Positions 29,465 to 31,386 of a stretch of 31,386 nt of DNA are shown piece after piece. The translations under genes and the position numbers were made by a program. Under the pieces are notes generated by a model. It was not told the origin of the DNA, searched no databases, and saw only the letters and a program-made list of their open reading frames with translations. Source of the DNA: a virus (taxonomy: Duplodnaviria; Heunggongvirae; Uroviricota; Caudoviricetes); the IMG/VR virus record IMGVR_UViG_2713896900_000011; one strand, written 5' to 3'. Position 1 is the stretch's first letter. The number at the start of each line of letters is the position of its first letter.

Positions 29465-29658
29465 TTCCAGACCCTCCGGCTTTTCAGAAAGGTCAGAGCC
29501 TTTTTTAACGGACTCTGTTTTTTGGTGCGGATAATGATTCCCTTGCGTCCCTTCCCGTGGGTGATGGTGAAGTCAATCGCCCTTGGGCTTTCGTTACGCA
29601 ATAACTGAGCAATACAACGCGGCTCATTCATAATCACAACCCCATCCACAAAAGCCAT
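29461..29658 (-). CDS. Hypothetical small protein (65 aa) between cox and B
   Basis: A small basic ORF with start/stop overlaps to both neighbours, in the position of P2 orf78. Confidence 0.45.
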   Translation of the reverse strand: MAFVDGVVIMNEPRCIAQLLRNESPRAIDFTITHGKGRKGIIIRTKKQSPLKKALTFLKSRRVWK

Positions 29659-29921
29659 GCATCACGCTGTTCAACCGGTCGGTTATAAAACGCCTCACGT
29701 ACAGCGCGATTAAACTCAGGAATGAAAACCCATTTTTCACCGGCACGAGCCTTCGGTTTGCAAGGATCACGCAATTCAATAATTGGTAATTTATTTGCCT
29801 TCACCATTTCACTGACGGCTGTCTTTGGCTTCCCTAATAAATCAGCAAATTTATCCACATGAACCGCATCAAGCGGATACTGAATCACATAATTTTCAGC
29901 GTCCATATATGGTACCCTCAT
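29634..29921 (-). CDS. cox: Cox (excisionase / repressor of the lysogenic promoter), about 90-95 aa
   Basis: The C-terminal half (...GEKWVFIPEFN...RDAWLLWMGL) resembles P2 Cox (...GEYWVYLPAWN...RDGWLMWLGL) as I remember it. It is the first gene of the early operon, divergent from C. The start may be the internal MDAENY. Confidence 0.8.
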   Translation of the reverse strand: MRVPYMDAENYVIQYPLDAVHVDKFADLLGKPKTAVSEMVKANKLPIIELRDPCKPKARAGEKWVFIPEFNRAVREAFYNRPVEQRDAWLLWMGL

Positions 29922-30042
29922 AGGATCCAGCCCTTTCTAAACCACTCAAAACCGTTTAGACGCTGGTTTATTCTCAAATCAATGGAACCTATATAGGTTC
30001 CAGTTTTGAGGGAATTTAGTCCCTATATAGGCACCATGTCAA
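29922..30042. promoter_or_regulatory. Immunity switch region (divergent Pe/Pc) with two CCTATATAGG palindromes
   Basis: An 18-bp perfect palindrome GGAACCTATATAGGTTCC at 29984-30001 and a second CCTATATAGG at 30022-30031, 34 bp apart, in the 121-bp gap between divergent cox and C. Confidence 0.6.
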
Positions 30043-30336
30043 ATGAAATTAAGCGAAAAGATTAAGGCCTTGCGTGAGGCTGAAGGGCTAAGCCAATCAA
30101 AATTCTGTGAAATCATAGAGTTACCGCTAAGCACACTTAAAAAATATGAAGGAGGAAACTTTGAACCCGGTGGCACAGCTTTGCTAAAAATCACTATGCA
30201 TCCCACATTCCAAAAATATGCTCTATGGCTTATGACAGATAAAACCGCGCCGGACGCAGGACAAATCGCACCGGCTCTCGCGCACATTGGGCCAGAGTCA
30301 ACAGAGTCCAACCACTCCGCGAAAAGGATTGGCTAA
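30043..30336 (+). CDS. C: Immunity repressor C (97 aa)
   Basis: The size and the C-terminal motif (...FQKYALWLMTDKTAPDAGQIAPALAHIGPE...) match P2 C repressor (...FTKYTLWFMTNQIAPESGQIAPALAHFGQ...) as I remember it. It is divergent from cox and upstream of int. Confidence 0.85.
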   Translation: MKLSEKIKALREAEGLSQSKFCEIIELPLSTLKKYEGGNFEPGGTALLKITMHPTFQKYALWLMTDKTAPDAGQIAPALAHIGPESTESNHSAKRIG

Positions 30337-30405
30337 CTCTATATAAAGATTACATTTTCACCATTTGCTACCAAGATGGTGAATACAGCGCCGGAGGGCT
30401 TTCTT

Positions 30406-31386
30406 ATGGCAATTAAGAAGCTCGATGATGGTCGCTATGAAGTGGACATTAGACCTCGCGGTCGCGACGGAAAACGCATCCGCAGGAAATTCGAAAGAAA
30501 AGCTGAAGCACTAGCATTTGAGCGATACACAATCGCCAATGCCAGTCAGAAAGAATGGGGAGGCCAGCGAGCAGACCGCCGAACTTTGAGTGAGTTGCTG
30601 GACATCTGGTGGAAATATCACGGGCAAAACCACGAGCATGGAACAAAAGAGTTTAATCATCTACTCAAAACCATCAGCGGCATAGGTGATATACCAGTGA
30701 GCAGGATGAGCAAAAGGGCTTTGATGGATTATCGTTCCATGCGACTACGTGATGGTATCAGTGCCGCAACGATAAACCGTGACATGTACCGATTATCCGG
30801 CATGTTCACAAAATTAATTCAATTGGATGAATTTTCCGGGCAACATCCAATTCACGGACTGCCGCCACTGGCGGAGGCCAACCCTGAAATGACGTTCCTG
30901 GAAAAAGCAGAAATCGAAAAACTGTTAAATGTTTTGGCTGGTGATGACTTACTTGTCGCGCTTTTATGTCTGAGCACTGGAGGAAGATGGACGGAAGTTG
31001 CCACGCTAAAACCAGCACAGATTACAAATTGCAGGGTTACCTTCCTGAAAACCAAAAACGGTAAAAAGCGAACCGTGCCGATTTCTGAGGAACTGGAGAA
31101 AAAAGTTAAAGAGGAGGCCAGCGCCAAATTATTCAAAGTTGATTATGAGAAATTTTGCGGGATTTTACGCAGAGTGAAACCTGATATACCACCCAATCAG
31201 GCAACCCACATCCTGCGGCATACATTCGCAAGCCATTTCATGATGAATGGGGGCAATATAATCGCACTGCAACAGATTCTGGGACATGCGAGCATTCAGC
31301 AGACGATGGCCTATGCGCACCTTGCGCCTGACTACCTGCAAAATGCCGTCGCTCTGAATCCACTAAAAGGCGGAGTGACGTTATAA
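30406..31386 (+). CDS. int: Tyrosine integrase (about 326 aa)
   Basis: The C-terminus carries the tyrosine-recombinase catalytic region (...HILRHTFASHFMMNGGNIIALQQILGHASIQQTMAYAHL...). I prefer the ATG at 30406 (MAIKKLDDGRYEV...) because it has a GGAGGG Shine-Dalgarno; the track's start is 30376. The gene ends at the last base of the window. Confidence 0.85.
   Translation: MAIKKLDDGRYEVDIRPRGRDGKRIRRKFERKAEALAFERYTIANASQKEWGGQRADRRTLSELLDIWWKYHGQNHEHGTKEFNHLLKTISGIGDIPVSRMSKRALMDYRSMRLRDGISAATINRDMYRLSGMFTKLIQLDEFSGQHPIHGLPPLAEANPEMTFLEKAEIEKLLNVLAGDDLLVALLCLSTGGRWTEVATLKPAQITNCRVTFLKTKNGKKRTVPISEELEKKVKEEASAKLFKVDYEKFCGILRRVKPDIPPNQATHILRHTFASHFMMNGGNIIALQQILGHASIQQTMAYAHLAPDYLQNAVALNPLKGGVTL

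Follow-up and report, generated by a model that had tools for sequence, protein, structure and literature searches.

Introduction

For phages related to P2, operators of the immunity repressor C had as of 2007 been located experimentally only in P2, P2 Hy dis and WPhi (PMC1904268). In WPhi, the start of the early promoter Pe was mapped and the region reads TTGACA gtaacc TATTGGTGAC t TATATT cccgtcaaaaggttgtg TATTGGTGAC, i.e. a TTGACA-6-TATTGGTGAC-1-TATATT-17-TATTGGTGAC arrangement (PMC1904263, PMC1904268). The two half-sites of 10 bp each are 34 bp apart from centre to centre and flank the -10 element of Pe, and mutation of one half-site was tolerated, whereas mutation of both abolished repression (PMC1904263, PMC1904268). 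The transcripts of Pe and of the opposing promoter Pc overlap by 82 nt in this phage, with Pc starting about 60 nt beyond the second operator site, O2 (PMC1904263).

The repeats of P2 itself are direct and non-palindromic, and, more loosely put, all seven immunity classes 'seem to' be likewise (PMC2995052). The dimer formed by P2 C is symmetric and similar to proteins that bind palindromes, which was called surprising, and how such a dimer deals with non-palindromic direct repeats has been a puzzle since the crystal structure of 2010; it was proposed that one monomer of each symmetric dimer reads a repeat (PMC2995052). Immunity groups, in turn, are delimited by a C identity of at least 95% within the group (PMC3448106).

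Two other kinds of regulators are of interest for comparison. C.Esp1396I has a structure like that of P2 C and binds directly repeated palindromes as a tetramer with one dimer on each (PMC2995052). Compared by description, one dimer per palindrome is also the arrangement predicted for the locus presented here, but the centres bound by C.Esp1396I are 15 bp apart and not 34, and it is a restriction-modification controller and not part of a phage immunity switch. Operators of lambdoid phages (434, P22 c2 and lambda cI) are dyad sites of 14–20 bp, each taking a helix-turn-helix dimer, with cooperation between adjacent dimers and with an AT-rich centre that is not contacted and is read indirectly. 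Dyad-symmetric sites with an AT-rich centre are found at the present locus as well. Lambdoid switches, however, use three operators in tandem at each promoter, their promoters diverge and their repressors are larger proteins of two domains, whereas two sites, promoters predicted to converge and a single-domain repressor of 97 aa are found here.

The locus and its immunity type

The window, i.e. the whole analysed stretch of DNA, has a length of 31,386 bp, and the features of its switch region are collected in Table 1. The families of the open reading frames, the homology of C to P2 C and the 100% identity of C to gpC of phage L-413C identify the locus, at the level of sequence, as the P2-type (C/Cox) lysis-lysogeny switch of a P2-like prophage with L-413C immunity type. 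In a phmmer search against the PDB, residues 3–97 of C matched the P2 C structure (2XCJ/2L49) with E = 1.9e-21. Identity of C was 55.7% to WPhi C and 43% to P2 C, and Cox was 82% identical to WPhi Cox. About 1 kb around the gap between cox and C was 99–99.9% identical to several Peduovirus genomes, and the gene order cox / C-int was the same as in the annotation of L-413C. Over 151 positions, the spacer between C and cox shows 3 differences from that of L-413C and none from those of six other phages. Membership in the WPhi immunity group (class III) was rejected, as C identity was 55.7% where at least 95% is required and the half-site is not TATTGGTGAC, and so was the P2 Hy dis class, the C protein of which is 63% identical to P2 C as compared with 43% here. 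Of 5,426 complete E. coli genomes, 420 carry a 101-bp core of the switch (29960–30060) with an identity of at least 98%. The L-413C immunity type is therefore common in E. coli, and it always occurred as a single chromosomal copy.

Table 1. Positions of genes, promoter elements and putative operator sites in the switch region of the window
Feature	Position	Strand	Basis and remarks
cox, first early-operon gene	29634–29906 (longest ORF to 29921)	-	Pfam Phage_Cox, E = 1.2e-23
Extended imperfect dyad on O2	29970–30015		23-nt arms, 74% complementary
O2 (putative), 20-bp perfect palindrome TGGAACCTATATAGGTTCCA, core 29988–29997	29983–30002		about +5 to +24 of the Pe transcript
Pe -10, TAAATT	30013–30018	-	18 bp from the -35; aligns with TATATT of WPhi
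O1 (putative), CCTATATAGG core in the Pe spacer	30022–30031		16-bp quasi-palindrome 30019–30034
Pe -35, TTGACA	30037–30042	-	adjoins the C start codon; promoter scan 10/12; same place as the mapped WPhi Pe -35 (PMC1904263)
C, immunity repressor, 97 aa, helix-turn-helix	30043–30336	+	ORF, Pfam HTH_3, homology to P2 C
int, tyrosine integrase, co-transcribed with C	30376–31386, to the last base of the window	+	Pfam Int_N, Phage_integrase

Two palindromic copies in the gap between cox and C

When the longest open reading frame of cox (minus strand, start at 29921) and the C start at 30043 are taken, the gap extends from 29922 to 30042 and comprises 121 bp, which agrees with an earlier note on this DNA. 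The true start of cox is probably the ATG at 29906 (MDAENY...), because RefSeq annotates the 273-nt form in identical phages and other immunity classes have no upstream ATG; the gap would then comprise 136 bp. This ATG is preceded by GAGGG and yields a Cox protein of 90 aa as in RefSeq.

The sequence CCTATATAGG occurs exactly at two places, both inside the gap (29988–29997 and 30022–30031), with a distance of 34 bp from start to start and 24 bp in between, and the second 10-bp core that the earlier note had placed 34 bp further on was recovered as an exact match. The left copy forms the centre of TGGAACCTATATAGGTTCCA, the longest perfect palindrome of the window. The 18-bp perfect palindrome GGAACCTATATAGGTTCC described before does exist, but its full extent is 20 bp, and in first-order Markov simulations a palindrome of at least 20 bp arose in 6 of 200 runs. 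The right copy is embedded in a 16-bp palindrome with one mismatched pair. If up to one mismatch to CCTATATAGG was allowed, these two matches were the only ones in the window (0.29 expected). A chance origin of the pair was rejected on the grounds of this excess, of the position of both copies in the regulatory gap, and of the left one lying in the longest palindrome.

Promoters and operator layout

A promoter scan of positions 29700–30400 yielded a sole consensus promoter, the minus-strand TTGACA-18-TAAATT. Along the strand of cox, the sequence reads TTGACA tggtg CCTATATAGG gac TAAATT ccctcaaaactggaa CCTATATAGG ttcca, which corresponds to a TTGACA-5-CCTATATAGG-3-TAAATT-15-CCTATATAGG layout. 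TAAATT is thus separated by 3 nt from O1 on its upstream side and by 15 nt from O2 on its downstream side, and the core of O2 spans roughly +10 to +19 of the Pe RNA. Paired C half-sites of the P2 family are 8–10 bp long and flank the -10 or the -35 of Pe with 22–34 bp between their centres, and the two copies fall within this range. No promoter corresponding to Pc emerged from the consensus scan, and a search of the plus strand by hand led to weak candidates such as TACCCT at 29913–29918. Alignment of a conserved CTGGATC...GGGTA block with WPhi would place the start of Pc near 29925, in the ribosome-binding region of cox. Divergent promoters, as presumed in the earlier note, are at odds with a Pe that adjoins C and points at cox and with the position of the WPhi Pc start beyond O2. 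The genes are divergent, but the promoters would stand face-to-face, with Pe next to C firing towards cox, and both palindromes would be part of the leader of the C transcript, with O2 in the first ~25 nt of the cox transcript.

The likeness to WPhi is close. Two 10-bp copies are 34 bp apart, one in the spacer of Pe and the other ~17 nt past the -10, the -35 element TTGACA adjoins the start codon of C, and cox lies on the opposite strand. The WPhi half-site TATTGGTGAC, however, is non-palindromic and directly repeated, whereas the unit is a perfect palindrome here and O2 is symmetric over 20 bp. With P2, the locus has in common a homologous repressor, two repeats that flank the -10 of Pe, and the face-to-face arrangement predicted for Pe and Pc, but the P2 repeats GTTTAGAT are 8 bp long, non-palindromic and 22 bp apart, and C identity is 43%. 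The suggestion of a C operator with a geometry unlike that of P2 was thus right with regard to the length and distance of the units and to their dyad symmetry, but it was overstated by the restriction to P2, as WPhi, which had not been considered, has the same layout of 10-bp units spaced by 34 bp around the -10.

Because the layout matches the mapped operator of WPhi, the two copies of CCTATATAGG are most likely O1 and O2, the operator sites at which the repressor C of the L-413C immunity class would act, a prediction in which we have considerable confidence. Identity with a characterised operator was rejected, as the half-sites of WPhi (TATTGGTGAC) and P2 (GTTTAGAT) differ from CCTATATAGG. 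A full-text literature search for CCTATATAGG returned no phage paper; the work of Karlsson et al. from 2006 was outside its reach. That study reportedly compared the spacers of seven immunity classes and may already show these repeats.

In the proposed mechanism, each palindrome would be occupied by a symmetric C dimer, the recognition helices of which would contact CC/GG and flanking bases some 4–8 positions from the dyad on each side, across a flexible TATATA centre. The dimer on O1 would fill the spacer of Pe and the dimer on O2 would cover the first transcribed bases. The centres of O1 and O2 are 34 bp apart, which is about three helical turns, so both sites would be on the same face of the DNA. 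The two dimers might cooperate and bend the -10 DNA between them, by which RNA polymerase would be excluded from Pe. Consequently, cox, replication and lytic genes would stay off, and C and int would be made from the opposing Pc. The flanks of the O1 core are only weakly symmetric, so that the outer half-site offered to a symmetric dimer would be poorer at O1.

Conservation within the class and two lytic phages as exceptions

Variation within the class was followed over a stretch of 151 bp in 10 phage records, in 36 IMG/VR loci with the same C, and in five E. coli prophages that had been picked for being not 100% identical. Both 10-bp cores were invariant across these ~50 sequences except in phages L-413C and R18C. 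L-413C has an intact C and three private changes, of which one (30031) hits the outermost base of the O1 core, one (30014) lies in the -10, and one (29985) is located in the O2 palindrome, 8 bp from the dyad. R18C (L074/L027) also has an intact C and carries two private changes, one in the O1 core (30023) and one in the O2 core (29997). L-413C has been described as a mutant of the temperate L-413 that is lytic or forms clear plaques (PMC2893161, PMC3448106), and R18C has been called virulent (PMC6823313).

One change per site in phages that are no longer temperate is what the mutagenesis of WPhi predicts for half-sites, although the evidence is correlative. Likewise by correlation, L-413C and R18C have the appearance of temperate phages with vir-type mutations in both operators; no paper in the literature collection searched was found to state this for either phage. 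Their four site mutations lie at positions 4, 5, 5 and 8 from the dyads and spare the TATATA centre, which would fit major-groove contacts ~4–8 bp from the dyad and a centre that is deformable and not contacted.

Another route to the loss of immunity is seen in the Yersinia phage HQ103 (L009), isolated on Y. pestis, which has wild-type sites and a C that is frameshifted to 61 aa instead of 97. In the sampled prophages (L082–L086 and the IMG/VR locus L015), changes were confined to the spacer (30035), to the position after the -10 (30012), or to the -10 itself, which became TAAATC or TAAACC, and the cores were unchanged. This suggests a decay in some domesticated prophages that reduces the activity of Pe.

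Sites and repressors across immunity classes

For the comparison with other classes, 64 IMG/VR loci and 80 loci from species-representative genomes were gathered, which gave 78 distinct operator regions. All 78 had a -35 element beside the start of C and class-specific sequences at the same two positions. The sites differed in every class with a diverged recognition helix and were common to classes with the same helix. One of the latter is L046, in which C is 86% identical with an identical recognition helix (LSTLKKYE), the sites are CCCATATAGG and CCTATATGGG with the same core, and the first early gene is unrelated to Cox. Another is the Pseudomonas prophage L126, with the helix LSTYKKYE and again CCTATATAGG and CCCATATAGG as sites. 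The opposite case is P37, where Cox is 88% and C 66% identical and the sites are quite different. In L061 and L067, the first 50 residues of Cox are in common, and C and the sites differ.

Dyad symmetry recurred in this set. The two 15-bp sites of L046 are TGGAACCCATATAGG and its exact reverse complement. Symmetric sites of near classes are CTCCTAATTAGGAG and GCTCCTATATGGGAGC (L070), GCCTATATAGGC (L048) and TCCTATATAGGA (L055, L064), those of more distant ones are pairs of GTTC-N7-GAAC (L067), GTCACGAATTTGTGAC (ENT4), CTTCCTATATAGGAAG (L102) and CATCCTCAATTGAGGATG (L141), and GTTCCTCGCAAGGAAC and GGTCCCAATTAGGACC were found in Pseudomonas. At least seven of eight dyad pairs were matched at O2 in 20.5% of the 78 regions and in 2.5% of shuffles, and at O1 in 9.0% and 0.9%, respectively; strong symmetry at both sites was a property of ten classes. 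The orientation of the sites relative to each other was inverted in L046 and, for 16-bp sites, in P37, L056 and L062, and direct in WPhi, L066, L088 and P2.

The direct non-palindromic repeat described for P2 is not what is found in the window, where the unit is a perfect 10-bp palindrome and O2 a perfect palindrome of 20 bp. The recurrence of dyad symmetry, in about 20% of the 78 regions, argues for a symmetric C dimer on each site. However, L088 has the same recognition helix and direct-repeat sites of 16 bp of which one half only is like the core here, and this would keep alive a one-sided recognition as proposed for P2 C. With somewhat more doubt than confidence, we propose that the C proteins of the P2 family are ordinary binders of dyad-symmetric operators, with one dimer on each of O1 and O2 of 16–20 bp. 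The repeats of P2 and WPhi might then be the better-conserved halves of such sites, the orientation of the sites would be free, and the L-413C class would be the limiting case. If true, the plague-diagnostic phage L-413C and R18C would have arisen from temperate phages by vir-type mutation of both operator sites.

Other readings of the palindromes

It had also been suggested that the TATATA cores could be the -10 hexamers of both switch promoters. TATATA does match TATAAT at four of six positions and both copies lie in the regulatory gap, but we consider this very improbable. The single scanned promoter is homologous to WPhi Pe and its -10 falls between the two cores, leaving O1 in the spacer and O2 downstream. 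TATATA does not end in the conserved T of the -10 consensus, no usable -35 was found at the right distance from either copy on either strand (the best -35-like hexamers near the cores are 12–14 bp or 20 bp off), and the alignment with WPhi would put the start of Pc near 29925. Related classes, moreover, have sequences other than TATA at both positions, e.g. TATTGGTGAC or GTTC-N7-GAAC. The palindromes could also be sites for Cox, which represses Pc and acts as excision factor, or for a host factor, instead of C. Cox must indeed bind somewhere in the gap to repress Pc, and the recognition sequence of WPhi Cox was, reportedly in work by Liu and Haggard-Ljungquist of 1999, not evident. Across the classes, however, the sites vary together with C and independently of Cox, and the attP region, where Cox must bind too, is devoid of copies (no match to CCTATATAGG with up to two mismatches in the int-ogr region of L-413C). 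Both points argue strongly against Cox as the reader of the palindromes, and C fits. Furthermore, the palindromes overlap Pe and not the predicted Pc, and the known Cox/Apl sites are direct-repeat arrays spaced by about one helical turn (PMC7498355), whereas two palindromes 34 bp apart are present here. A role as sites for Cox or a host factor in place of C is, all in all, scarcely credible.

More weight has to be given to a function of the O2 palindrome in RNA, although it is unlikely that it acts mainly at this level. A stem-loop at the very start of the Pe RNA, and its antisense in the long leader of C, could affect mRNA stability, pausing or attenuation, instead of or besides the binding of repressor. 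A hairpin centred on O2 is predicted in the Pe leader (first ~40 nt) with -16.0 kcal/mol (z = -4.3), and a terminator scan flagged the O2 stem on the minus strand. The stem has four G-C pairs in eight, however, and its tail TTGATTTGAG has no proper run of T, which would make it a poor intrinsic terminator. An Rfam scan of 29600–30400 gave no match, and RNAalifold detected no consensus in an unanchored MAFFT alignment of 14 Pe leaders, the hairpins being out of register. A dyad-anchored count over 14 related, heteroimmune classes was used in its place. A dyad centred on O2, with arms of different sequence, was found in 14 of 14 when 16 positions on each side were considered, with 10–14 of the 16 mirrored positions complementary; position 8 was G:C in 13 of 14 classes, and positions 9 and 10 were paired in 13–14 of 14 with three or four types of pairs, which amounts to compensatory change. 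The outer arms AAAAGG / CCTTTT are common to heteroimmune WPhi-like phages with different inner sites and are therefore not determinants of C specificity. In WPhi, the replacement of the phage flanks (upstream of the -35 and downstream of O2) by vector DNA raised the activity of a Pe reporter almost 100-fold (PMC1904263). On the other hand, a function in RNA leaves unexplained the O1 copy, which lacks an extended hairpin and is located before the start of Pe, and the covariation of the inner sequence with the recognition helix of C. A role of the outer dyad in RNA or in DNA structure besides the binding of C is plausible and compatible with O1 and O2 being operator sites for C.

Relevance

The element is a known kind of switch, with spacing and placement like in WPhi and palindromic half-sites unlike those of textbook P2. 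Apart from these half-sites and the link to lytic phages, it is the expected part of a well-known switch. About 8% of complete E. coli genomes carry the L-413C class, to which the phage L-413C used for plague diagnostics also belongs, and a natural operator with identical halves in each site provides a clean substrate for a co-structure of C with DNA and for the mutagenesis of half-sites. The paired operator mutations are suggested as a genetic reason why L-413C and R18C behave as lytic phages. Both are in use or have been proposed for diagnostics and therapy, where the risk of lysogeny matters.

Further observations on the switch region

An alignment of 16 C proteins from different immunity classes showed hardly any variation in the C-terminal half, which begins at about residue 55, and a variable helix-turn-helix half, a pattern to be anticipated if new specificities arise through alteration or replacement of the N-terminal half. 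In L046/L047, L056, L062 and L063, C is 63–86% identical and the first early gene has no detectable similarity to Cox. Relatives of C that face early genes other than cox indicate that the module of repressor and operator has recombined with different regulators of the lytic side.

In the Pc-proximal half of the gap, an inverted repeat, TCTAAAC-N11-GTTTAGA, is located at 29936–29960. On the cox strand, TTTAGAAAGGGC in this region resembles the direct repeats CCTAGAAAGGAC and CCTAGAAGGGAC of WPhi. Because of this resemblance and the 82% identity of the two Cox proteins, the repeats at 29936–29960 are candidate binding sites for Cox.
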